Shown here: in pieces, positions 55,843 to 64,000 of the stretch
How positions within the stretch are numbered: the stretch's first letter is position 1
How the letters are laid out: each line of letters begins with the position of its first letter
IMG/VR virus record: IMGVR_UViG_3300043823_000198
Location: 101,634-165,633 of that record
DNA from: a virus
Length of the DNA stretch: 64,000 bases
Direction: 5' to 3' (one strand)
Made by a program: the position numbers and the translations under genes
The notes under the pieces: model-generated
The model's input: the letters and a program-made list of their open reading frames with translations, nothing else
Told to the model about the DNA's origin: nothing
The model's database searches: none

Positions 55843-56279
55843 TGCGTAAATATGTGACCCAAATGCTTGATGAGATTCAAGCAGATCCAAAAGTAATTGA
55901 AACATACAAGAACGATGCTGTTCTGAAGATTCTATTTGAGTATGCTTTCGATACATCTAAAAAAATGATTCTTCCAGAGGGAACACCTCCATTCAAACCA
56001 GCATCTGAACCTCTAGGTATGACACCAACAAATTTATTTGGTGAGATGCGCAGGTTATATGTTTTCTGTCGAGAAGACTTAAAACCACTGAAACGTGAGA
56101 GTTTATTCATCTCTTTACTGGAGGGTGTACATCCGTCAGAGGCTGATATTCTGATTGCTGTCAAAGACCAAACTCTTCATAAGAAATATCCAAAGATCAC
56201 TCGAAAACTTGTCACTGATGCTGGGTTCATTCCTCCTGTAGAAAAGAAGGTAAAAGCCAGTGAGACATCTAGAGGATAA
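55842..56279 (+). CDS. conserved T4-like hypothetical protein (DUF6433-like)
   Basis: LPEGTPPF, KRESLFISLLEGVHPSEA. Confidence 0.65.
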   Translation: MRKYVTQMLDEIQADPKVIETYKNDAVLKILFEYAFDTSKKMILPEGTPPFKPASEPLGMTPTNLFGEMRRLYVFCREDLKPLKRESLFISLLEGVHPSEADILIAVKDQTLHKKYPKITRKLVTDAGFIPPVEKKVKASETSRG

Positions 56280-56478
56280 TGATAGAGATTTCATTTTATT
56301 TCTTCTAAGTTTAGAAGAAGATGAATTCAAGATGATGCTTAACTCTATGACTGATGAAGAAGCTCTTGTTGTATTAAATAATATCCAACTCGCAAGAGAA
56401 GAACTTTTTGATGACGAGATGGATAAAAATGGAACTCCAGATGCGATTAAAATTATTGATAGGATAAAAAGAAAATGA
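56260..56478 (+). CDS. hypothetical protein
   Basis: ORF track. Confidence 0.5.
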   Translation: MRHLEDNDRDFILFLLSLEEDEFKMMLNSMTDEEALVVLNNIQLAREELFDDEMDKNGTPDAIKIIDRIKRK

Positions 56479-57284
56479 TGTTCTTTGTAAAAAATAAAAA
56501 AGTTGTTGTTGATTGTTTTACTTATGTTGATGTTGCTTATGATTTTTTTAAAATTAGAAAGGCATTAAGATATTATCCAGAAATAATTAAAAAAATGGAT
56601 CCATTTGTAATTGAAGGTGCCAGAAAAGATCCAAGAACAAATATTAGTATAACAACCCCAACAATTAAAATGTGTACTGGGTTGAATTTGTTATATAAAC
56701 ATGGTGCAATAATGCCATTTTGGACTGATGTTAAGATATGCCCAAAATCATATCTTTCCAATCAGTCTTCAATCGCAATGACAGAACCATGGTATCAAGA
56801 AAAAATACATGAACATCCAAAAGAGCAGTTTGCTGGGATGATGGAAGGATATACTCATATTAAATTTATTGGAGTTTGGAATATACAAGAAAAAAATGGA
56901 ATAAAATTTACTTGGAATCCAGCATTTTGGAATATGGACGTTCTCAATAAAAATCTTCTAATTCCTCCTGGTGTAACATTTTATGATAATCAATGTCAAA
57001 CTAACATAAATGCCTTTGTTAGAAATGATGCTGATGATTTTATACTTAAAGCAGGCACTCCATTAATTCACATAACTCCTTTGACTGAAAAAGAAGTTGA
57101 GTATAAATGTCATCTTGTATCTTATGAAGAATGGATTAAGAAAAATCAGATTACTCTAACGTATCCGAATTTCGTTCCTGGTCTTCGTTGGAACAGAGTT
57201 CTTAAAGACAGAGCTTCTTCAAAAGAGATGGATAGACTTGATGCTGCTGAGAATCGTAAATGTCCATTTGGATTTGGAAAATGA
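56475..57284 (+). CDS. hypothetical protein
   Basis: TIKMCTG, IPPG, KAGTPLIHITP, CPFGFGK end. Confidence 0.6.
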   Translation: MMFFVKNKKVVVDCFTYVDVAYDFFKIRKALRYYPEIIKKMDPFVIEGARKDPRTNISITTPTIKMCTGLNLLYKHGAIMPFWTDVKICPKSYLSNQSSIAMTEPWYQEKIHEHPKEQFAGMMEGYTHIKFIGVWNIQEKNGIKFTWNPAFWNMDVLNKNLLIPPGVTFYDNQCQTNINAFVRNDADDFILKAGTPLIHITPLTEKEVEYKCHLVSYEEWIKKNQITLTYPNFVPGLRWNRVLKDRASSKEMDRLDAAENRKCPFGFGK

Positions 57285-57712
57285 AAGAAAAATGGATTAA
57301 AGCATTCATGGACACAGCGGCAAGGTTCGCTGACTTGTCCAGCGCAGTTCGATTGAAGGTTGGTTCAGTTGTTGTAAAAGACAACCGTATCATCTCTATC
57401 GGATACAACGGCACACCTGCGGGTTGGGACAATGCGTGCGAGTATGTGGAATACGATGACAATGGTGATCCACTTGGAACAAAAACGAAGGACGAAGTTA
57501 TTCATGCAGAAGCCAATGCGATTGCTAAGCTCGCCCGTGATGGTGAGTCTGGTAGTGGCGCTACTTTATTTGCAACTCATGCTCCTTGCGTTCAGTGCGC
57601 CAAACTGATTTACGGTGCAGGAATTACTAAGGTTTACTACAAAAATTCCTACCGAAACACTGCTGGTTTGGATTTTCTAAACAAATGTGGAATTGAAACG
57701 GAACAAGTTTAA
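57281..57712 (+). CDS. cd: dCMP deaminase
   Basis: VGSVVV, GYNG, HAEANAI, PCVQC. Confidence 0.92.
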   Translation: MKEKWIKAFMDTAARFADLSSAVRLKVGSVVVKDNRIISIGYNGTPAGWDNACEYVEYDDNGDPLGTKTKDEVIHAEANAIAKLARDGESGSGATLFATHAPCVQCAKLIYGAGITKVYYKNSYRNTAGLDFLNKCGIETEQV

Positions 57713-59229
57713 TGAAAAATATTGTTATTCTTGGTGGTGGTGCTGCTGGTTGGTTAACATGTTTATTTTTAAAAAAACAATGGCCAACACTTGATATTAC
57801 TGTTGTTGAAGATCCATCTAAACCACCAATAATTGCTGGTGAATCTGGATCATATGCTCTTAATAATCTGTTTAACGATCTTGACATTGATATTTTTCAA
57901 TGGGTTATCAATACCAATGCGATGCCAAAAAATGGCGCCAAATTTCATGATTGGACTAAACTGAATCATACATTCACACATTCAATAATTGATCCTAAAA
58001 GAAGAGAGGAACAAAAACGTAAAACAACCCTTAGCGATATTACGTTTGATATGATCACACTATCAAAAGAAATTACTATCTCAGATTCTTACACCTGGGG
58101 AACTTTAATTCATGAAAACATGGTACCGTTTATTAAAACAGACGATCGTGGGTATGATGCCATGACACACCCAATGTTTCATTTTGATAGCAGAGCAAAT
58201 GCTGCTTACCTGAAAAAACTTGGAATTGAAAGAGGTGGTAAACTTCGTGAAGGAAAGTTTGTTGAGGCGAAACGTGATGTCGATAATGGAAACATTCTTT
58301 CTCTTTTGTTTGATGATGGAACAACTATTGATGGAGACTTTTTTTTTGATTGTTCTGGTTTCGCCAAACTATTGTTGAAGGGTGCGCTTGATGTTAAATT
58401 TGATGACTACTCTCAATATTTTCCAGCATCATCTGTTCTTGGATGGTGGGGATCTGAGATAGAGAATAAATCTTATACTGACATAACTGCTTTAAAAAAT
58501 GGATGGACCTTCAATATCAATATCAGAAACAGAAGCGGTAATGGTTACATTTATGATAATAGTGAAATATCAGTAGATCAGGCTATAGAGGAAATTGAAA
58601 CAAAATTTGGTAAAAAAATTGAACCAATTGCTTCTTTTACATATCAACCAGATCTTGCAACTGAATTTTGGAAAAATAATGTAATTGGTATTGGAATAAG
58701 TACTGGTTTCGTTGAACCGCTTGAATCAAATGGTCTAGGTACTGTTGTGCATAGTATCATTAATCTAAGTCCATACTGGGATCCAGAAAATAAAGATTTT
58801 CATGTTGAACGTAAATTATATAATGAAGAGATGATTAAAATGGCCAAAGGTGTTATTGATTTTTTAAATTTACACTATAGAGGTAAAAGAACAGACACAA
58901 ACTACTGGCGAAAACTTAAAGATCGCAAATTTTGGACTGATAGAGTTTGCGATTATGTTGATCTGTGGAGCAATGGTAATCTTGGTGAGTATACTTTATA
59001 TTCAGCTTATGGTTTCGGAAGTTTTTTTACTGTTGCTCAGGCTCTTGAGCTTATAAATGTTGAAAAAATTAAAGAAAAAGTTTCTAAAGTTGATACTAAT
59101 ATTGTAAAACAATACGATGATATTGTTATACCAATTCAGCAAGAGTACAAAAAGCGTATCTTAAACGAATGCTATAAGATAGATGATTGGAAAAATGCAT
59201 TTTATGCAGGATTGAATAAAAATCCTTGA
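57712..59229 (+). CDS. tryptophan-halogenase-like enzyme (copy 3)
   Basis: GGGAAG, IAGES, AMPKNGAKFHDW, FDCSGF, GWTFNINI, FVEPLES. Confidence 0.85.
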   Translation: MKNIVILGGGAAGWLTCLFLKKQWPTLDITVVEDPSKPPIIAGESGSYALNNLFNDLDIDIFQWVINTNAMPKNGAKFHDWTKLNHTFTHSIIDPKRREEQKRKTTLSDITFDMITLSKEITISDSYTWGTLIHENMVPFIKTDDRGYDAMTHPMFHFDSRANAAYLKKLGIERGGKLREGKFVEAKRDVDNGNILSLLFDDGTTIDGDFFFDCSGFAKLLLKGALDVKFDDYSQYFPASSVLGWWGSEIENKSYTDITALKNGWTFNINIRNRSGNGYIYDNSEISVDQAIEEIETKFGKKIEPIASFTYQPDLATEFWKNNVIGIGISTGFVEPLESNGLGTVVHSIINLSPYWDPENKDFHVERKLYNEEMIKMAKGVIDFLNLHYRGKRTDTNYWRKLKDRKFWTDRVCDYVDLWSNGNLGEYTLYSAYGFGSFFTVAQALELINVEKIKEKVSKVDTNIVKQYDDIVIPIQQEYKKRILNECYKIDDWKNAFYAGLNKNP

Positions 59230-59254
59230 CTTTTATAAATAAATAGAATATAAT
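59226..59254 (+). promoter_or_regulatory. sigma70-type promoter with nested TATAAATA
   Basis: TTGACT-17-TATAAT. Confidence 0.6.
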
Positions 59255-59277
59255 TTATCTAACAGTTGGAGAAATCT

Positions 59278-59583
59278 ATGAAAAAAATTGTATTTGCTTT
59301 ACTTTTCTTAGCTGCAACTGCATCTGATGCATGTTGCTATCGTGGTCCATATTTTCATGGTGGACCAGTTGGTTGCTGTGTCAGTGGATGGGTTGCTCCT
59401 GCTCTAGTTGGTGGAGTTATTGGTTATGAGTTAGCAAAACCAAATACTGTTGTTGTTCAACCACCTGTTGTTGTTCAACAACCAGTAGTTACTCAATTAC
59501 CTCCTGCTCCGTATGGCTATCACTATCAAATGATGGTGAATCCTCAAAATAATTTTCAACAATGGGTCTTAGTACCAAACTAA
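59278..59583 (+). CDS. secreted Pro/Val-rich protein
   Basis: signal peptide, GWVAPALVGGVIGYEL, VVQPP repeats. Confidence 0.65.
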   Translation: MKKIVFALLFLAATASDACCYRGPYFHGGPVGCCVSGWVAPALVGGVIGYELAKPNTVVVQPPVVVQQPVVTQLPPAPYGYHYQMMVNPQNNFQQWVLVPN

Positions 59584-59601
59584 GATGTATATATATTAAA
59601 T

Positions 59602-59656
59602 AACCCTACAAAAAGTAGGGGAATTGCTTGACATTTAACCAAAGGCGTAATATAAT
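59602..59656 (+). promoter_or_regulatory. sigma70-type promoter with upstream palindrome, driving leader/tRNA region
   Basis: CCCTAC-AAAAA-GTAGGG 59604-59620; TTGACA 59628; TATAAT 59651. Confidence 0.8.
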
Positions 59657-59663
59657 TTCTACT

Positions 59664-59792
59664 ATGAAATCGTTAAACATATCCAGATCGATGAGTAAGC
59701 ATCTACCGTTATCATGCGGTTGGACAGGCTCACGTTCACAGTTTAACAACACAACAGCGATTGAGTATGATACTGGGGGTTTTGGAAAGTAA
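59664..59792 (+). CDS. putative attenuator leader peptide (42 aa, leaderless; not in ORF track)
   Basis: MKSLNISRSMSKHLPLSCGWTGSRSQFNNTTAIEYDTGGFGK; ATG 7 nt after the -10 box; 3' end overlaps antiterminator arm. Confidence 0.65.
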   Translation: MKSLNISRSMSKHLPLSCGWTGSRSQFNNTTAIEYDTGGFGK

Positions 59793-59853
59793 AGTTTACC
59801 TTACTTTGTTTCCCAAAACCCCGATACTGAGAAGTTCGGGGTTTTTTGTTTTG
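59776..59853 (+). terminator. alternative antiterminator / intrinsic terminator
   Basis: 59776-59792 pairs with 59801-59822; alternatively AAAACCCCGA 59815-59824 pairs with TCGGGGTTTT 59836-59845 followed by T-rich tail. Confidence 0.8.
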
Positions 59854-59891
59854 TAGGTCTAATAAAACTTAAAAACTAAAAGTTTTTTATT

Positions 59892-59899
59892 TATAAATA
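59892..59899 (+). promoter_or_regulatory. T4-type late promoter for HNH gene
   Basis: TATAAATA then GAGGAGG SD. Confidence 0.65.
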
Positions 59900-59921
59900 T
59901 CTGTATAACCGAGGAGGAAAT

Positions 59922-60284
59922 ATGGATACTAAAGAAAAAAACAAAAAGTATTATGAAGCCAACAAAACAAAAATGATTGAGTACCAGAAGGAAAGATATA
60001 ACTCTCTACTTGAAGTTTATTCAAAATGGAAGAAAACTTTAAAGTGTGTTTGTTGCGGTGAATCTGATCATAACTGTTTAGATTTTCACCATGTTAATCC
60101 AGAAGAGAAAGAGATAAAAATCTCAACAGCCCTTGGCCGAGGTGCTAAGACTGTTGTGAAGGAATTAAAAAAATGTATTGTTGTGTGTGCCAATTGTCAT
60201 AGAAAGGTTCATGCTTACAATACTGTAGTTGAGGTTGATGAAGAACTTTCAAATTCTTTTGAAAAATCTTTAAAAATCCCTTGA
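59922..60284 (+). CDS. HNH endonuclease (probable homing endonuclease)
   Basis: CVCCGE..LDFHHVNP..KCIVVCANCHRKVH. Confidence 0.85.
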   Translation: MDTKEKNKKYYEANKTKMIEYQKERYNSLLEVYSKWKKTLKCVCCGESDHNCLDFHHVNPEEKEIKISTALGRGAKTVVKELKKCIVVCANCHRKVHAYNTVVEVDEELSNSFEKSLKIP

Positions 60285-60332
60285 CTTTGAATTAAACTTA
60301 GTGTATAATTCAATCTGTTCTTTAAAAATTTG
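60281..60332 (+). promoter_or_regulatory. sigma70-type promoter followed by boxA-like antitermination element
   Basis: TTGACT-17-TATAAT (60281-60309); TGTTCTTTAAAAATTTG 60316-60332. Confidence 0.7.
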
Positions 60333-60387
60333 CGTACCATATTTAAGAGTCACCAGTGATAGTTCGCTGGAGCTGGTGACTCACTGT

Positions 60388-60461
60388 TCCTCGATAGTGT
60401 AGCGGTAACACAGTTGACTTTGACTCAACTATCACAAGTTCGAATCTTGTTCGGGGTGCCA
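60388..60461 (+). tRNA. tRNA-Gln(UUG)
   Basis: cloverleaf, GTTGA-CTTTGAC-TCAAC, TTCGAAT, CCA. Confidence 0.9.
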
Positions 60462-60691
60462 TATAGAAACACATTATGTCAGTGAGGAGGCACCAAGTTG
60501 TGTGCAACGGTAGTGTGTTTTTATATGGTATAGCTTAATTCAAGAGCAGTGGGCACACAGGCGTCAACGACTACCCATCAATGCAGGTGCAACCCCTGCT
60601 ACCATATAAAAACACACTAACCAATCGGTTTAAAGGGTCGCCGAGATGCCAAGAGGTATGTATAGCCCTGTTAGTGTGTTTTTATATGGTA
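60459..60691. repeat. four alternating-orientation copies of a ~20-bp repeat (CCATATAAAAACACACTA and its reverse complement)
   Basis: copies at 60459-60477, 60510-60530, 60600-60621, 60670-60691. Confidence 0.9.
60524..60607 (+). ncRNA. tRNA-like element with 20-nt anticodon loop, no CCA
   Basis: TATGGTA/TACCATA acceptor, D arm, GTGGG/CCCAT stem, GCAGG-TGCAACC-CCTGC T arm. Confidence 0.6.
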
Positions 60692-60695
60692 TAAT

Positions 60696-60770
60696 GCAGG
60701 TATAACTCAATGGTAGAGTAATCGGCTTTTAACCGATAAGCTGTGAGTTCGAGTCTCACTGCCTGTACCA
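60696..60770 (+). tRNA. tRNA-Lys(UUU)
   Basis: ATCGG-CTTTTAA-CCGAT, CCA. Confidence 0.92.
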
Positions 60771-60789
60771 TCTAAAATAAAAAGACTAC

Positions 60790-60864
60790 GGTGACTATGG
60801 TGTAATGGTAGCACCCGACTCTGTGAAAGTCGTAGCACGAGATCGATACTCGTTAGTTACCCCA
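60790..60864 (+). tRNA. tRNA-His(GUG)
   Basis: CGACT-CTGTGAA-AGTCG, G-1/C73, CCA. Confidence 0.9.
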
Positions 60865-60866
60865 AT

Positions 60867-60942
60867 GCAACTTTAGCTGATGTGGTCATAGCGGTGGTCT
60901 GAAGAACCATTGAAAGAGGTTCGATTCCTCTAGGTTGCACCA
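60867..60942 (+). tRNA. tRNA-Phe(GAA)
   Basis: GTGGT-CTGAAGA-ACCAT, CCA. Confidence 0.9.
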
Positions 60943-61011
60943 AAGATGTCCTTTCGCCTAGAAAATAATTAGGCGATAAAGAGTGGAGATGGGATCCCAC
61001 CCAAATATTTT

Positions 61012-61085
61012 CCTCTTGTAGCTCAAAGGTAGAGCAATCGGCTGATAACCGATAGACACAGGATCGTTCCCTGTCGAGAGGACCA
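61012..61085 (+). tRNA. tRNA-Ile(GAU)
   Basis: ATCGG-CTGATAA-CCGAT, CCA. Confidence 0.88.
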
Positions 61086-61092
61086 AGTTTTC

Positions 61093-61166
61093 GCCCTACT
61101 AGTATAATGGTATTACGTCGGTTTTGTAATCCGAATACGGCAGTTCGATTCTGTCGTGGGGCACCA
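61093..61166 (+). tRNA. tRNA-Thr(UGU)
   Basis: TCGGT-TTTGTAA-TCCGA, CCA. Confidence 0.88.
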
Positions 61167-61174
61167 GTTTTTAT

Positions 61175-61251
<77 letters not shown>

Positions 61252-61256
61252 AGTTT

Positions 61257-61331
61257 GGGCTGTTAGTGATAATGGGAGCACGCTGGCTTTGCACGTCAGA
61301 GGTAAGAGTTCGATTCTCTTACGGTCCACCA
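61257..61331 (+). tRNA. tRNA-Ala(UGC)
   Basis: CTGGC-TTTGCAC-GTCAG, G3:U70, CCA. Confidence 0.92.
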
Positions 61332-61340
61332 AATTTTTAT

Positions 61341-61416
61341 GCGGGAGTATCTCAGTTGGTAGAGAGCTTGCTTGCCAAGCAAGATGTCGCGAGTTCGAAC
61401 CTCGTCTCCCGCTCCA
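61341..61416 (+). tRNA. tRNA-Gly(GCC)
   Basis: CTTGC-TTGCCAA-GCAAG, U73, CCA. Confidence 0.93.
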
Positions 61417-61422
61417 AATTAT

Positions 61423-61496
61423 GCCTCGTTAGTTGAATGGTAAAACACCCTCCTTACAAGTGGGATACGGCAGTTCGATTCTGTCACGAGGTACCA
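61423..61496 (+). tRNA. tRNA-Val(UAC)
   Basis: CCCTC-CTTACAA-GTGGG, CCA. Confidence 0.88.
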
Positions 61497-61502
61497 AGTT
61501 AT

Positions 61503-61578
61503 GCCCGATTGGTGAAATGGATAATCATACTGTGCTACGAACGCAGAGGTAGGGGTTCGATTCCCTTATTGGGTACCA
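61503..61578 (+). tRNA. tRNA-Arg(ACG)
   Basis: CTGTG-CTACGAA-CGCAG, CCA. Confidence 0.9.
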
Positions 61579-61661
61579 AATTTGTAGTTGAGACTCGAGA
61601 CAAATCCACTGTTAAATAAAGAGAGAACTGAGTGGTACTCTCCAACTACATTTTTTAATAC

Positions 61662-61752
61662 GGAGACGTGGTCGAGTTGGTTTATGGCTCTAGTCTTGAA
61701 AACTAGCGAATTAGAAATAGTTCCGTGGGTTCGAATCCCACCGTCTCCTCCA
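61662..61752 (+). tRNA. tRNA-Ser(UGA)
   Basis: CTAGT-CTTGAAA-ACTAG, long variable arm, CCA. Confidence 0.92.
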
Positions 61753-61773
61753 ATTTTTATGAAAGGAAAAGTT

Positions 61774-62340
61774 ATGCCAAGCGTATTCTTAGTAAGCGAC
61801 ACGCACTTTGGTCATGCTGGTGTGACTAAATTTTTGCGTGCTGATGGTAGTAAATTGCGACCATGGGATTCTGTTGAAGAAATGGATGAAGCAATGGTAA
61901 AAGCATGGAACGAAACAGTGAAACCAACTGATAAAGTTTATCATTTGGGTGATGTAGTTATCAATCGTAAAGCACTTTCGATTATGCATCGTTTGAATGG
62001 CGATAAAGTTTTGATTCGTGGTAACCATGATATCTTTAGAGATGATGAATACCGTCAACACTTTAGAGAATTGCGTGCGTACCATGTAATGAATGGCATG
62101 ATACTTTCACATATCCCTATTCATACTGAAAGTTTGGGTAGGTTTGGTGTGAACATTCATGGTCACTTACACAGTAATCGTGTTATGATTACTGATCAAT
62201 ACGATGTTACTAAAGTAGATCCAAGATACCACTGCGTCTGCGTTGAACAAACAGACTTCAGACCCATCTTGTTTGAGCAAGTGATCCAAAAAATCAAAGA
62301 CGAAGGTGGTGTTGTTGGATTTAAAAATGGTAATCATTAG
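61774..62340 (+). CDS. calcineurin-like metallophosphoesterase
   Basis: SDTHFGH, YHLGD, RGNHD, LSHIP, IHGHLH; AAGGA SD before 61774. Confidence 0.88.
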   Translation: MPSVFLVSDTHFGHAGVTKFLRADGSKLRPWDSVEEMDEAMVKAWNETVKPTDKVYHLGDVVINRKALSIMHRLNGDKVLIRGNHDIFRDDEYRQHFRELRAYHVMNGMILSHIPIHTESLGRFGVNIHGHLHSNRVMITDQYDVTKVDPRYHCVCVEQTDFRPILFEQVIQKIKDEGGVVGFKNGNH

Positions 62341-62429
62341 GAGAGTGGGCAGGATGGTAATGCAGCGGATTGCTAATCCGTACACTTATGAAAGTAGGTG
62401 AGTGGGTTCAATTCCCACACTCTCCACCA
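62340..62429 (+). tRNA. tRNA-Ser(GCU)
   Basis: GCGGA-TTGCTAA-TCCGT, long variable arm, CCA. Confidence 0.9.
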
Positions 62430-62433
62430 AATT

Positions 62434-62510
62434 GCGGATGTGATGGAATTGGTATACATATCAGACTTAAAATCTGAGTTCTGAGGGTTCGAGTCCCTCC
62501 ATCCGTACCA
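62434..62510 (+). tRNA. tRNA-Leu(UAA), short variable arm
   Basis: TCAGA-CTTAAAA-TCTGA, CCA. Confidence 0.88.
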
Positions 62511-62516
62511 GTTTAT

Positions 62517-62591
62517 CTCGCTTTAGTATAATGGATAATACAGTAGGCTTCTACCCTACGAATGTGGGTTCGATTCCTGCAGGCGAGACCA
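62517..62591 (+). tRNA. tRNA-Arg(UCU)
   Basis: GTAGG-CTTCTAC-CCTAC, CCA. Confidence 0.9.
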
Positions 62592-62597
62592 GTTGTT

Positions 62598-62672
62598 GGG
62601 CTTATAGCATAAAGGTAGTGCTGTCAACTCATAATTGATAAGGTAGTGGTTCGAATCCACTTGAGCCCACCA
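62598..62672 (+). tRNA. tRNA with CAU anticodon (Ile2 or elongator Met)
   Basis: GTCAA-CTCATAA-TTGAT, CCA; lacks initiator features. Confidence 0.85.
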
Positions 62673-62673
62673 T

Positions 62674-62751
62674 GCCCCTGTGGACAAATTGGCAAAGTCG
62701 CTTCTCTCAAAAGGAAGAGTTCTCTCAGTTCAAATCTGAGCAGGGGTACCA
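62674..62751 (+). tRNA. tRNA-Leu(CAA), short variable arm
   Basis: CTTCT-CTCAAAA-GGAAG, CCA. Confidence 0.85.
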
Positions 62752-62757
62752 AATTAT

Positions 62758-62833
62758 GTGGGTGTGTCCCGAAAGGCTAGGGGAGGGATTGCAAATCCTT
62801 TTTATGCAGGTTCGATTCCTGTCACCTACTCCA
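62758..62833 (+). tRNA. tRNA-Cys(GCA)
   Basis: AGGGA-TTGCAAA-TCCTT, U73, CCA. Confidence 0.88.
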
Positions 62834-62835
62834 AT

Positions 62836-62898
62836 AACCCTACTTGCAATAGGGTAATAAAAATATCGCTTGACATTTATATCAAGTTGATGTATAAT
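62836..62898 (+). promoter_or_regulatory. sigma70-type promoter with upstream palindrome inside tRNA array
   Basis: ACCCTA-CTTGCAA-TAGGGT 62837-62855; TTGACA 62870; TATAAT 62893. Confidence 0.8.
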
Positions 62899-63017
62899 TA
62901 AGTTTCTTTAGTTGATAATCAAAAATCCTCTCTAAGTCTTTACGTAAAGTCGGAAGCATGAGGTGATACTGCTGGTTTGGTGGATTTTACCAGTTAATAC
63001 CAAAAATCCACCACTCT

Positions 63018-63092
63018 GCACGGTTCGTCTATCGGTTAGGACACCAGCCTTTCACGTTGGTAAGACGGGTTCGATTCCCGTACCGTGTACCA
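63018..63092 (+). tRNA. tRNA-Glu(UUC)
   Basis: CCAGC-CTTTCAC-GTTGG, CCA. Confidence 0.92.
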
Positions 63093-63093
63093 G

Positions 63094-63312
63094 ATTTAAT
63101 TGTATTGGGTTGCCAATACCAGTAGGATACTTTCCACCAAGCTGCATTGACGGATGTGGGGTGAAGTGAAGTTATCATGAAACCTTGAGATAATATCAGG
63201 AGGACGCTGGATGAAGTTGGGATGTAATGTAGAAGTTGTCTTATCGGTAGACGATACCGTGAGAATCCCTAATGTACTTGGGTTGACGACTGATATCCCA
63301 GTGCAATTAAAT
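63094..63312 (+). ncRNA. candidate ~220-nt structured ncRNA
   Basis: 16-bp closing stem ATTTAATTGTATTGGG / CCCAGTGCAATTAAAT with two G-U pairs; no convincing ORF. Confidence 0.55.
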
Positions 63313-63367
63313 GTGGTAAAGCAGATTAGAAATCCGCTTTTAACTAAATATGGTTAAGGGGATTACT

Positions 63368-63811
63368 ATGAAGCAAGATAGAAATAAATTTACAGATCAA
63401 GAATTGATTGATGCGTATAATGAAGAGAAACATCTAGGTAAACTAGCTGCAAAATTCAAAGTTCCAATTATACAGATCTGGAGAAAATGTAAAGTTTTAG
63501 GTTTAGAGTTCGGAAGCGGTGGTGGTAAACAATCAAAAATATCTCTTAATGAGATTCTTGATGGCCTTCATCCTTATTATCAAACATTAAAGTTAAAGAA
63601 AAGACTGATTAGAGAAGGAGTTCTTGAGTATAAGTGCTCTAGTTGTAATATTAGTGACTGGCAAGGCAAGGAACTTTCTTTACAACTTGACCATATTAAT
63701 GGCGATAACTCTGATCATAGAAAACAAAATTTAAGACTCATGTGCCCAAATTGTCACTCACAAACAGACACATGGTGCGGTAAAGGTATTAATGGAGATC
63801 TAGTCCCGTAA
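63368..63811 (+). CDS. HNH endonuclease with N-terminal HTH-like segment
   Basis: KCSSC..LQLDHINGDNSDHRKQNLRLMCPNCHSQT; stop lies inside tRNA-Tyr. Confidence 0.88.
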   Translation: MKQDRNKFTDQELIDAYNEEKHLGKLAAKFKVPIIQIWRKCKVLGLEFGSGGGKQSKISLNEILDGLHPYYQTLKLKKRLIREGVLEYKCSSCNISDWQGKELSLQLDHINGDNSDHRKQNLRLMCPNCHSQTDTWCGKGINGDLVP

Positions 63812-63880
63812 TGGTATCGGGGGTTGACTGTAAATCAATTGTCTTTGACCTTCTCTGTTCGAATCGGAGGGTCTCCACCA
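63794..63880 (+). tRNA. tRNA-Tyr(GUA)
   Basis: GTTGA-CTGTAAA-TCAAT, variable arm, CCA. Confidence 0.88.
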
Positions 63881-64000
63881 AGTTCAACAATGAAGGATGT
63901 TTAAGACGGCTTGTAAACTTCATTGGATTCAGGTACAGATTGCCGTTAATTCCTGAGTCAATTTAATTTGTTATAATGAAGAATCCGAAAGCGAGGATGA

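Follow-up and report, generated by a model that had tools for sequence, protein, structure and literature searches.

A candidate ribosome-mediated attenuator at the head of a phage tRNA array, with a leader that samples nearly every amino acid

At the head of the tRNA array of an uncultured freshwater T4-like phage lies an element that we read as a ribosome-mediated transcription attenuator whose leader samples essentially every amino acid; we give this reading a probability of about 0.6, in the absence of any experimental or RNA-level evidence. The reading rests on the geometry of the element, the folding of its RNA, its conservation, the signs that its leader is translated, the all-amino-acid content of that leader, the weak constraint on its single positions and its linkage to the array. 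A preliminary description of this DNA had already proposed an attenuator that samples the whole amino-acid set, and the comparison of relatives now supports that proposal, with the function inferred and not shown. Phage tRNA arrays are now regarded as a means by which a phage copes with codon mismatch and with tRNA-destroying host defences, and to our knowledge the control of their expression is largely unknown. The window analysed here is a stretch of 64,000 nucleotides (positions 101,634 to 165,633 of IMG/VR record IMGVR_UViG_3300043823_000198), and the features of interest, in window coordinates, are the following:

59604-59620, strand not assigned: stem-loop 5′ of promoter P1; a similar hairpin lies 5′ of the promoter in most relatives
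59628-59656, plus strand: promoter P1, with TTGACA at 59628-59633, a 17-nt spacer and TATAAT at 59651-59656
59664-59792, plus strand: leader ORF, 42 codons and a TAA stop (59790-59792), with 19 of the 20 amino acids
59702-59724, plus strand: hairpin H1, within codons 13-21, as predicted by RNAalifold
59776-59795, plus strand: arm A of the antiterminator (GGG GGT TTT GGA AAG, the stop codon and 3 more bases)
59803-59822, plus strand: arm B, which can pair with A (antiterminator) or, through 59815-59824, with C (terminator)
59815-59853, plus strand: intrinsic terminator B:C, with a 10-bp lower stem, a bulge, a 3-bp upper stem, a GAGA loop and T6GT4
59922-60284, plus strand: HNH endonuclease ORF between terminator and array (PHROG 2255, E 1.9e-25)
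60281-60309, plus strand: promoter P2 (TTGACT, 17 nt, TATAAT; 11/12 match)
60316-60380, plus strand: boxA-like motif TGTTCTTTAAAAA (60316-60328) and an 8-bp hairpin (60349-60380), just 5′ of tRNA-Gln
60388-63092, plus strand: tRNA array, with 19 tRNA genes in the window as called by ARAGORN, the first being tRNA-Gln(UUG)

The promoter, the ORF, segments A, B and C and the terminator of the preliminary description were all found where it had placed them. P1 matches the sigma-70 consensus at 12/12 positions and is one of only two such promoters in 56000-64000; its counterparts in the relatives read TTGACW or TTTACT, 17 nt and TATAAT. For the stem-loop 5′ of P1 two roles are conceivable: it may terminate the gene before it, or it may belong to a promoter/stem-loop cassette. 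As a separate observation, the hairpin-plus-promoter layout of 59604-59656 is found again at 62837-62898. The ATG of the leader ORF lies just 7 nt 3′ of the -10 hexamer and no Shine-Dalgarno sequence precedes it, so that the leader mRNA is predicted to be, probably, leaderless. A similar spacing is found in the relatives, since in 24 of the 36 distinct upstream regions 6-7 nt separate the end of the -10 hexamer from the ATG, and an AAGGA Shine-Dalgarno sequence is present in exactly those five relatives that have no promoter abutting the ATG. A recount of the ORF gave 30 distinct codons and 19 amino acids over its 42 codons, with Val absent, as had been reported.

The 3′ part of the element can fold in two ways. 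Segment A as originally drawn (59776-59792) was confirmed, as was segment B (59801-59807 together with 59813-59822); segment C spans 59836-59845 and is followed by the T6GT4 tract. B:C is a terminator with a GC-rich stem and a GNRA loop, and the leader stop codon lies inside helix A:B. The two helices are mutually exclusive, as 7-8 nt of B, AAAACCC(C), are common to both. When the RNA of the element in the window was folded, a 19-bp A:B helix interrupted by one A x C mismatch came out as the minimum-energy structure and B:C as the centroid, the two states being nearly isoenergetic. In the relatives the mean hairpin energies were about -23.6 kcal/mol for A:B and about -17.0 kcal/mol for B:C. 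RNA folded only to the end of B adopted A:B in 12/12 sequences examined, and the full-length RNA was bistable over 38 relatives, B:C being the state of 30 and A:B that of 8. When the footprint of a ribosome at the stop codon was masked, the B:C fold was obtained in 38/38 relatives; this is the outcome of a folding model and not of an experiment. No convincing trp-like 1:2 pause or anti-antiterminator hairpin was found, and pairing with A is not seen for the conserved hairpin H1; some of the predicted folds, but not that of the window, contain a weak ACGCCC:GGGGGU pairing. Such a 1:2 hairpin is a feature of the trp type and is not obligatory for all attenuators. Without an anti-antiterminator of this kind, however, untranslated RNA would read through, unlike the trp leader.

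This geometry would operate as follows. Transcription from an early sigma-70-type promoter would yield an RNA that begins at or beside the AUG, and a ribosome would translate the leader of about 40 codons. Once arm B has been made, arm A could pair with it, so that the base of the terminator stem would be withheld, and with A:B formed RNA polymerase would pass on to the boxA-like motif and the tRNA genes. A ribosome that keeps in step and rests on the stop codon would cover A, B:C would form and transcription would end at the U tract. If a ribosome were held up at any codon 5′ of A, either by the lack of any charged tRNA or by a general impairment of translation, more read-through into the tRNA genes would follow. 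The position of the ribosome is thus inferred to set the choice of helix, with tRNA expression as the output, and slow translation probably lets transcription continue towards the tRNA genes.

The loci of the relatives were collected by means of a degenerate peptide pattern, and the element was found in about 47 IMG/VR contigs, with 39 distinct ORFs and identities down to 30%. These relatives share descent (15 clusters at 80% peptide identity, 9 at 70%), so that the shuffle statistics given here overstate independence. The leader frame is open in 39/39 distinct ORFs of 37-46 codons, many indels notwithstanding, and over the same ORFs the remaining two forward frames carry 127 and 145 stops. 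From such signs, and from nothing else, we infer that the leader ORF is translated. The preliminary description had asked whether the ORF keeps its frame relative to the stems, and it is in frame with them in 39/39. The stop falls 15 nt after the start of arm A in 34 sequences and 21 nt after it in 4, and in five relatives the stop comes two codons later, with peptides that end in GGFGKQM or GGFGKLM.

The covariation that had been proposed for both stems was borne out, as both are kept and both show compensatory changes. A:B is paired at 93.4%, compared with 37-66% when the partner is slid; one of its pairs is AU in 26 sequences and GC in 10, and where the stop is TAG instead of TAA, the opposite arm has C in place of U. 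Cells with changes on both sides of A:B numbered 21 as against 10.8 in shuffles, and none of 500 shuffles reached 21. The B:C stem is paired at 94.2% with compensatory changes at 5 pairs, and its covariation score was 0.258 as against 0.111 in shuffles, a value that was again reached in 0/500. In arm A, GGGGGTTTTGG is invariant in 38/38 sequences, synonymous sites included, although the gathering of loci by a degenerate peptide pattern has to be borne in mind here. Hairpin H1 has a core of 4 pairs that is 91% paired in the relatives, with AU/GU/GC and CG/UG/UA exchanges; its role is unknown, and it is possible that it is an RNA polymerase pause or a folding element. A 5′ helix, H2 (CAUAUCCAG with CUGGACAUG), is merely 75% paired and shows little covariation. 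The suggestion that the encoded peptide is variable held only in part: its pN/pS of 0.73 indicates weak constraint on single positions, but L-P, W, R and D-x-GGFGK show little or no variation. Part of this invariance is, as far as the alignment can tell, a reflection of RNA pairing.

The most distinctive property of the leader is its amino-acid content. All 39 distinct ORFs encode 19 or 20 different amino acids within 37-46 codons, and 27 of them encode all 20, which agrees with the earlier view that the leader samples nearly the whole set and has no single-residue run. The same holds for the 33-40 residues 5′ of arm A taken alone. Such a content would fit a signal of the kind 'any amino acid or tRNA', although as a form of codon enrichment in a leader it would be new. 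By chance, in the phage's own ORFs, at least 19 amino acids would be expected in 0.7-3% of cases and all 20 in 0.06-0.4%. When residues were shuffled within the columns of the alignment, the mean number of amino acids was 18.37 (sd 0.11), in comparison with 19.69 observed, which none of 5000 shuffles reached. Residues that are missing from their usual column reappear elsewhere in the same leader, as was seen for His (14/14), Glu (7/7), Tyr (24/24) and Cys (10/12). Val is missing from 9 leaders; this does not track a missing tRNA-Val, and the window does carry a tRNA-Val.

The proposed comparison of codon diversity with 42-codon windows gave a mixed outcome. Relative to such windows of the phage's long ORFs, the 30 codons of the window leader fall in the top 4.8% and its 19 amino acids in the top 4.3%, so that this leader alone is only mildly unusual, but the signal of the family is far beyond chance. 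The mean ln RSCU of the window leader lies at the 1.9th percentile of the same set. Among the leader codons described as uncommon, TCG, CCG and GGG (5% each of the codons for their amino acid), GCG (10%) and ATA (15%) are so, but AGA (32%, RSCU 1.9) and CTA (RSCU 0.94) are not. The match of certain leader codons to tRNAs of the array, which had been offered in support, turned out to be a weak argument: the array spans nearly the whole code, so that a match is trivial. For the conserved TCC and GGG codons of the leader, the cognate tRNA is lacking in this contig.

Linkage to the array is upheld by the relatives. In 43 of the 45 loci that could be assessed, the first tRNA gene 3′ of the element is tRNA-Gln, which heads the array, and the upstream neighbours of the element belong to at least eight unrelated families. 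The whole record carries 24 tRNAs, with the array running across the contig ends. The placement of the leader ahead of the array therefore stands insofar as the element occupies the array head, but in the window the HNH ORF, P2 and the boxA-like motif intervene. The HNH ORF is probably a mobile insertion, and it is missing at this place in relatives whose terminator lies 45-60 nt from tRNA-Gln. A P2-like promoter between the terminator and tRNA-Gln is found in about half of the relatives, and since P2 is present there and in the window, the array need not depend on read-through and the switch would be bypassed. In about half of the loci there is no sigma-70-type promoter from the terminator to the boxA or tRNA-Gln, for example at locus L052, where the gap is 45 nt. 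The motif TGTTCTTTAAAAA is taken by us to resemble the rrn boxA, and a loose boxA-like motif precedes tRNA-Gln in 33 of 48 loci scanned. A 23-nt motif before tRNA-Gln was also considered as a repeated phage promoter and rejected, as it occurs only once in the window.

Searches that did not depend on these relatives returned little. At E <= 1, Rfam yielded tRNAs and sub-threshold chance matches (rimP leader, Rev39 5′ UTR) and no leader family, and neither Pfam nor PHROGs contained a family that matched the leader peptide. Among the cultured phages of INPHARED, blastn with 59200-60400 gave just a short HNH match in Aeromonas phage ZPAH1, and tblastn with the leader peptide gave no match. A scan of genome contigs with a profile of the peptide revealed no bacterial or archaeal relative, and a search for homologous proteins gave 40 metagenomic matches, all of them unnamed or labelled 'hypothetical protein'. 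Attenuation of phage tRNA genes was not described in the papers found by a literature search, which did not cover all journals. Two further readings of the coding potential were rejected. A -1 frameshift at the slippery heptamer G GGU UUU followed by structure is not supported, as the inter-arm stretch is 28-35 nt long and does not vary in threes, and no extended frame is conserved. An antisense gene was also dismissed: one reverse frame is open in 34/39 ORFs, broken in 5, and overlaps the promoter. We regard it as a by-product; stops in that frame need Tyr, His or Gln codon contexts, of which there is about one per leader.

Other explanations of the same locus have to be weighed against the attenuator. 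The conserved residues could mean that the locus is an independent early micro-gene, whose peptide of about 40 residues acts in trans (for example on a host factor), with the terminator ending a short mRNA, A:B being a 3′ structure and the adjacency to the array being inherited gene order. L15, P16, W23, R27, D42 and GGFGK are indeed invariant or nearly so, and at L15, P16 and L17 the amino acid is kept over 3-5 synonymous codons. Gene callers applied to metagenomes label the leader ORF a 'hypothetical protein', and with a second promoter past the terminator, as is present in the window and about half of the relatives, the unit could pass for a self-contained one. A free peptide, however, gives no cause for the presence of all 20 amino acids at shifting positions, and a pN/pS of 0.73 is far higher than that of typical functional proteins. 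AlphaFold2, run on the peptide alignment, returned a pLDDT of 58 without secondary structure or fold, and the peptide belongs to no Pfam or PHROG family. Furthermore, the GGG GGT TTT codons of GGFGK show no synonymous change, a sign of RNA pairing; covariation links the synonymous changes at P16 to the opposite arm of H1; and the linkage to tRNA-Gln stays while the upstream neighbours differ. We therefore consider a micro-gene unlikely.

The conserved C-terminus could also belong to a nascent-peptide sensor like TnaC, SecM or SpeFL, in which D-x-GGFGK, perhaps with W and R-P, would arrest the ribosome on or close to the stop codon in response to a specific ligand or factor, so that this stall, and not tRNA supply, picks A:B or B:C. 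No gap falls within the last 11 residues; D42, G44, G45, F46, G47 and K48 are invariant and W23 and R27 nearly so, and the geometry makes the dwell time of the ribosome at the stop decisive. The absence of synonymous variation in the invariant C-terminal codons means, however, that RNA pairing can explain them; in addition, the spacing from W and R-P to the C-terminus varies by up to 8 residues, the GGFGKQM and GGFGKLM relatives stop two codons later, and the all-20 content is left unexplained. A sensor of this type appears improbable. Least credible, to the point that we give it hardly any weight, is a non-coding RNA element (a small RNA, a hairpin processed by RNase III or otherwise, or the 5′ leader of a pre-tRNA transcript) in which the ORF is incidental. 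It could draw on nucleotide-invariant codons (ATA 29/29, AGA 22/22, and also ACA, TGC, CCA, GCG, ATT and GAT) and on the conserved hairpins H1 and A:B, and a 19-bp helix could serve as an RNase III substrate. Against it are the leader frame, which is open in 39/39 while the other forward frames have 127 and 145 stops, the position of the ATG, which coincides with the predicted start of the transcript or follows a Shine-Dalgarno sequence if the promoter is more distant, and the lack of any Rfam family at threshold.

The attenuator reading has weaknesses of its own. Most amino acids occur only once or twice per leader, so that a mild shortage of a single one should be weakly sensed. Leaderless translation is inefficient in many Gram-negative hosts, which weakens the reading further. 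Arm C might, by branch migration, displace A so quickly that transcription terminates whatever the ribosome does, and the invariant L-P, W, R and D-x-GGFGK might have a peptide role of their own. A more specific version of the attenuator, which we put forward only tentatively and believe somewhat less than we doubt, is that the leader is a universal decoding-failure alarm: with every amino acid encoded 5′ of the antiterminator arm, the loss of any charged tRNA would stall the ribosome and turn on the full set of phage tRNAs, and the new tRNAs would then close the switch by negative feedback. Codon-usage mismatch, starvation or a host defence that cleaves tRNAs might cause such a loss, with both the trigger and the switching untested.

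If the attenuator reading is true, the reach of leader-peptide attenuation, which is textbook knowledge for amino-acid operons, would now include tRNA genes and viruses, and this would be the first leader known to be selected for all amino acids instead of for a single-residue run. The element would also be a compact sensor of overall decoding capacity, of about 190 nt, usable as a synthetic-biology part. Further genomes can be screened for the all-20 rule, which makes a sharp signature at the sequence level.

Among known RNA elements, the T-box (RF00230) had no match at E <= 1 in 59000-64000, and A:B has one 1x1 mismatch and lacks the bulge. The best overlapping Rfam match, the rimP leader (RF01770; 59788-59892), scored 28.2 bits with E 0.15, below its gathering score of 47. 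The likeness to the rrn boxA leaders consists in the boxA-like TGTTCTTTAAAAA before the first tRNA, so that the untranslated RNA made by read-through would carry the motif; this is, however, a separate element 3′ of the switch, and recruitment of Nus factors is only supposed. The antibiotic-responsive uORF attenuators of vmlR, lmo0919 and msrD (PMC10314930 for msrD) resemble the proposed phage switch in that general stalling flips a terminator/antiterminator pair and turns on a translation-rescue gene, but there a drug provokes the stall, and does so at specific peptide motifs, whereas the phage leader involves no drug and has the all-amino-acid hallmark. E. coli pheST, with its pheM leader, couples, as is proposed for the phage element, the decoding of a leader to the expression of a translation component, but it is owned by the host, senses Phe codons only and controls a synthetase, whereas the phage element precedes tRNA genes. 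There are also parallels in layout with the attenuators of amino-acid operons (trpL, hisL, leuL, thrL, pheL and the multivalent ilv leaders), which also place a promoter-proximal short ORF and an intrinsic terminator before the regulated genes. In the trpL/hisL type, as in the phage element, the antiterminator has one arm in common with the terminator, and in both, by inference for the phage, a ribosome at the stop masks the 5′ antiterminator arm, which is freed by an upstream stall. The phage element differs from the trpL type in having no clear 1:2 hairpin, in its mRNA, which is predicted to be mostly leaderless, and in being encoded by a phage. Finally, the attenuators of the trpL/hisL type control biosynthetic enzymes through leaders that repeat one to three cognate amino acids, whereas the phage element precedes tRNA genes and its leader has 19-20 different ones.

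On sequence grounds, the leader region ahead of the phage tRNA array has the anatomy of a ribosome-mediated attenuator. The preliminary description had listed a promoter, a short ORF and three arms, from which either an antiterminator helix (A:B) or an intrinsic terminator (B:C) can form, and each of these features was found in place on the forward strand:

59628-59656, promoter P1, TTGACA (59628-59633), 17-nt spacer, TATAAT (59651-59656)
59664-59792, leader ORF, ATG at 59664, 42 sense codons, TAA at 59790-59792
59776-59795, arm A
59803-59822, arm B
59836-59845, arm C
between B and C, GAGA-capped upper stem
directly 3′ of C, T6GT4 tail

In the minimum-energy fold A and B form a 19-bp helix with one A x C mismatch, in which the stop codon is paired with G-U-U of arm B, whereas the centroid structure is the terminator, so that the two states lie near each other in energy. 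The preliminary description had missed that the -10 hexamer is only 7 nt from the ATG and that a Shine-Dalgarno sequence is absent; hence, the transcript would start at or beside the AUG, i.e., as a leaderless mRNA. A cassette consisting of a stem-loop (AACCCTAC, loop, GTAGGG) and a 12/12 sigma-70 promoter occurs at 59604-59656 and again at 62837-62898, and resembles the promoter-early/stem-loop cassettes of T4-type phages. In the proposed mechanism, a ribosome that reaches the stop codon would mask A, so that the terminator forms; a ribosome delayed upstream, or the absence of translation, would leave A:B in place and lead to read-through. To this reading, an attenuator that senses when any charged tRNA runs short or when translation slows down generally, we assign a probability of roughly 0.6, with both switching and translation inferred.

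Relatives were collected by an exact 17-mer scan of IMG/VR, which returned 34 loci (29 of them align over ~250 nt, from promoter to U tract, at 70-83% identity), and by a degenerate peptide pattern scan, free of the 17-mer bias, which returned 47 loci with 39 distinct ORFs. Identity among the leader peptides has a median of 51% and falls to 30%; the peptides fall into 15 clusters with an 80% identity cut-off and into 9 with one of 70%. Nothing comparable to the leader element was found in 185,579 prokaryotic genomes, nucleotide and translated searches of the INPHARED cultured phages revealed none with the element, and in a 5.8-billion-protein collection the leader peptide matched unnamed metagenomic proteins only.

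The strongest result is the all-amino-acid content of these leaders. None of the 39 distinct leaders has fewer than 19 different amino acids; 27 of them have the full set of 20, and the remainder lack Val (nine leaders), Cys (two) or Trp (one). Since only stalls at codons upstream of arm A can free A, it is the content of that part that matters, and the 33-40 residues upstream of A (i.e., without GGFGK) gave identical numbers, with Gly, Phe and Lys always also present there; three leaders hold all 20 amino acids within 33 residues. By comparison, a window taken from the phage's ORFs has a probability of 0.7% (33 residues) or 3% (40) of containing 19 or more amino acids, and of 0.06% or 0.4%, respectively, of containing all 20. 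After within-column shuffling the leaders averaged 18.37 different amino acids (sd 0.11), with 5 complete sets of 20, and none of 5000 shuffles reached the observed mean of 19.69 and 27 all-20 leaders. Residues lost from one alignment column turn up at other leader positions: His gone from column 14 was found at column 11 or 12 (14/14), Glu gone from column 40 at column 29 (7/7), Tyr gone from column 41 at columns 37, 39, 30 or 32 (24/24), and Cys gone from column 25 elsewhere in 10 of 12 cases. Shared descent of the relatives inflates these statistics; even so, the Tyr and Cys relocations each appear to require at least four separate events. Whole-code sampling had first been inferred from the window alone, where the signal is weak (top 4-5%), so that the inference was a good guess that only the family could confirm. 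The accompanying argument from uncommon codons does not hold for AGA and CTA, neither of which the phage uses rarely, and the matching of leader codons to array tRNAs is uninformative, because the array spans nearly the whole code.

Constraint was also observed at the RNA level. The RNAalifold consensus structure is A:B, which is 93.4% paired (alignment A2) against 37-66% with the 3′ partner slid, and its doubly changed cells numbered 21 against 10.8 in shuffles, none of 500 reaching 21. The clearest compensatory case is TAA to TAG (or the equivalent site in longer variants), matched by U to C in the partner; the third base of the stop codon and its partner are AU in 26 and GC in 10. The codons GGG GGT TTT (G44, G45, F46) are invariant, synonymous sites included, in sequences gathered via amino acids. 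The terminator stem is 94.2% paired, with five compensatory pairs and a covariation score of 0.258 (0.111 in shuffles; 0/500 reach the observed value). Mean hairpin energies are -23.6 kcal/mol for A:B and -17.0 kcal/mol for B:C. A:B formed in each of the 12 sequences for which RNA ending at B was folded; with the stop codon covered by a ribosome footprint, the terminator resulted in 38/38, and folding of the full-length RNA of relatives indicated bistability. A:B overlaps the terminator stem only at its base (AAAACCC with GGGUUUU); in intrinsic terminators the stem base beside the U tract must form for termination. A small hairpin inside codons 13-21 is conserved as well (91% paired).

As a rival reading, a non-coding RNA, i.e., an untranslated element, is scarcely credible. 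The leader ORF is open in all 39 distinct ORFs, at 37-46 codons, with no stops in frame 0 and 127 and 145 in the other two forward frames. Of the 36 different upstream regions, 24 have a strong promoter whose end lies 6-7 nt from the ATG, four have the -10 hexamer 10 nt away, and three have a weaker promoter 6 nt away; the five with a promoter further upstream carry AAGGA at a Shine-Dalgarno-like distance. A ribosome-binding site thus seems to be gained exactly where the 5′-terminal AUG is lost, for which there would be no reason in an RNA gene. An open frame with signs of translation could also yield a free micropeptide, which seems unlikely, or an arrest peptide that senses a ligand or factor, which is a still weaker candidate. 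The product of the leader ORF is weakly constrained (uncorrected pN/pS 0.73 overall, 0.60-0.85 in the better conserved parts), AlphaFold2 predicted no structure for the peptide (pLDDT 58), and neither Pfam nor PHROG held a family for it. The minus-strand frame antisense to the leader (59664-59792) is open in 34/39 relatives; it was rejected as a gene, its openness being explained by scarce Tyr, His and Gln codon contexts.

Of the 45 loci with sufficient sequence, 43 have tRNA-Gln(UUG) as the first downstream tRNA gene, 106-596 nt past the stop; the exceptions, contigs L037 and L038, which share one ORF variant, show tRNA-Arg in this place together with a weakened U tract. On its 5′ side the unit is flanked by genes from at least eight unrelated families, so that it travels with the array and not with its upstream neighbour. 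In the window the array is not adjacent to the terminator, a point absent from the preliminary description; tRNA-Gln starts at 60388, preceded by:

59922-60284, HNH endonuclease ORF (PHROG 2255, E 1.9e-25), between terminator and P2
60281-60309, second promoter P2, 11/12 match
60316-60380, boxA-like motif TGTTCTTTAAAAA and 8-bp hairpin (60349-60380), immediately before tRNA-Gln

The boxA-like motif, in a loose form, lies just ahead of tRNA-Gln in most loci (33 of 48 scanned), and together with the hairpin suggests Nus-type antitermination of an untranslated tRNA operon; a repeated promoter was rejected, as the motif occurs only once in the window. In roughly half of the loci the stretch from the U tract to boxA/tRNA-Gln has no sigma-70-type promoter, and in one relative (contig L052) the gap is 45 nt and contains only a small hairpin and boxA. 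In promoter-less loci the array is reachable only via terminator read-through, barring an unrecognised phage promoter in those 45 nt. The other half, the window included, have a second promoter between U tract and array, so that the switch at most adds to array transcription; in the window the switch would act on the HNH gene as well. This ORF is probably a mobile insertion, because relatives in which the terminator directly adjoins boxA lack it at this place. Ahead of it are TATAAATA (59892-59899), which fits the consensus of T4 late promoters, and a ribosome-binding site, GAGGAGG; a second HNH ORF lies at 63350-63811. The small hairpin between leader terminator and boxA (L052, 1688-1699, and the equivalent site in other relatives) has a conserved CAUCGU loop and a co-varying stem (GGCC/GGGC/CCCUAC). 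Some relatives' arrays carry tRNAs with stop or odd anticodons (contigs L032, 12080-12153; L023, 984-1057; L031, 401-477); those with UUA (ochre suppressor-like) and AUA share a position just after tRNA-Gln, and CUA is amber suppressor-like. A UAA suppressor tRNA would decode the stop codon of the leader as well.

The IMG/VR virus record (165,633 bp, 37% G+C; the window is its final 64 kb) encodes a T4-type family-B DNA polymerase, a DnaB-like helicase, a ribonucleotide reductase and 24 tRNA genes, with the array spanning the contig ends; the DNA runs containing the stretch are labelled freshwater metagenome. A tryptophan-halogenase-family ORF (57712-59229; PF04820, E 1.4e-75) is followed by a 105-residue ORF (59266-59583) that is Cys/Pro/Val-rich, whose N-terminus is signal- or lipoprotein-like and which has an 11/12 promoter of its own. 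Inside the array, between two tRNA-Ser genes, lies a calcineurin-like metallophosphoesterase ORF (PF00149; 61588-62340), whose true start is probably downstream of 61752, since the listed 5′ extension overlaps tRNA-Ser(UGA).

Where complete, the arrays of these phages have tRNAs for 19-20 amino acids, so that leader and array mirror each other, and the all-20 content fits a sensor of any charged-tRNA shortage or of a general translation slowdown. Host codon mismatch, starvation and tRNA-cleaving defences are only candidates for the natural trigger, which remains open. Full-text literature searches, which did not cover all journals, turned up no publication that describes phage tRNA genes as being controlled by attenuation. 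In its inferred mode of action the element resembles the leader attenuators of trp, his, leu, thr and ilv as well as the pheST attenuator, from which it differs in that all amino acids would be sensed and tRNA genes targeted, and in that it has no 1:2 hairpin, a putatively leaderless mRNA and a viral location. In its proposed response to general stalling it resembles antibiotic-sensing uORF attenuators (e.g., upstream of msrD, PMC10314930).
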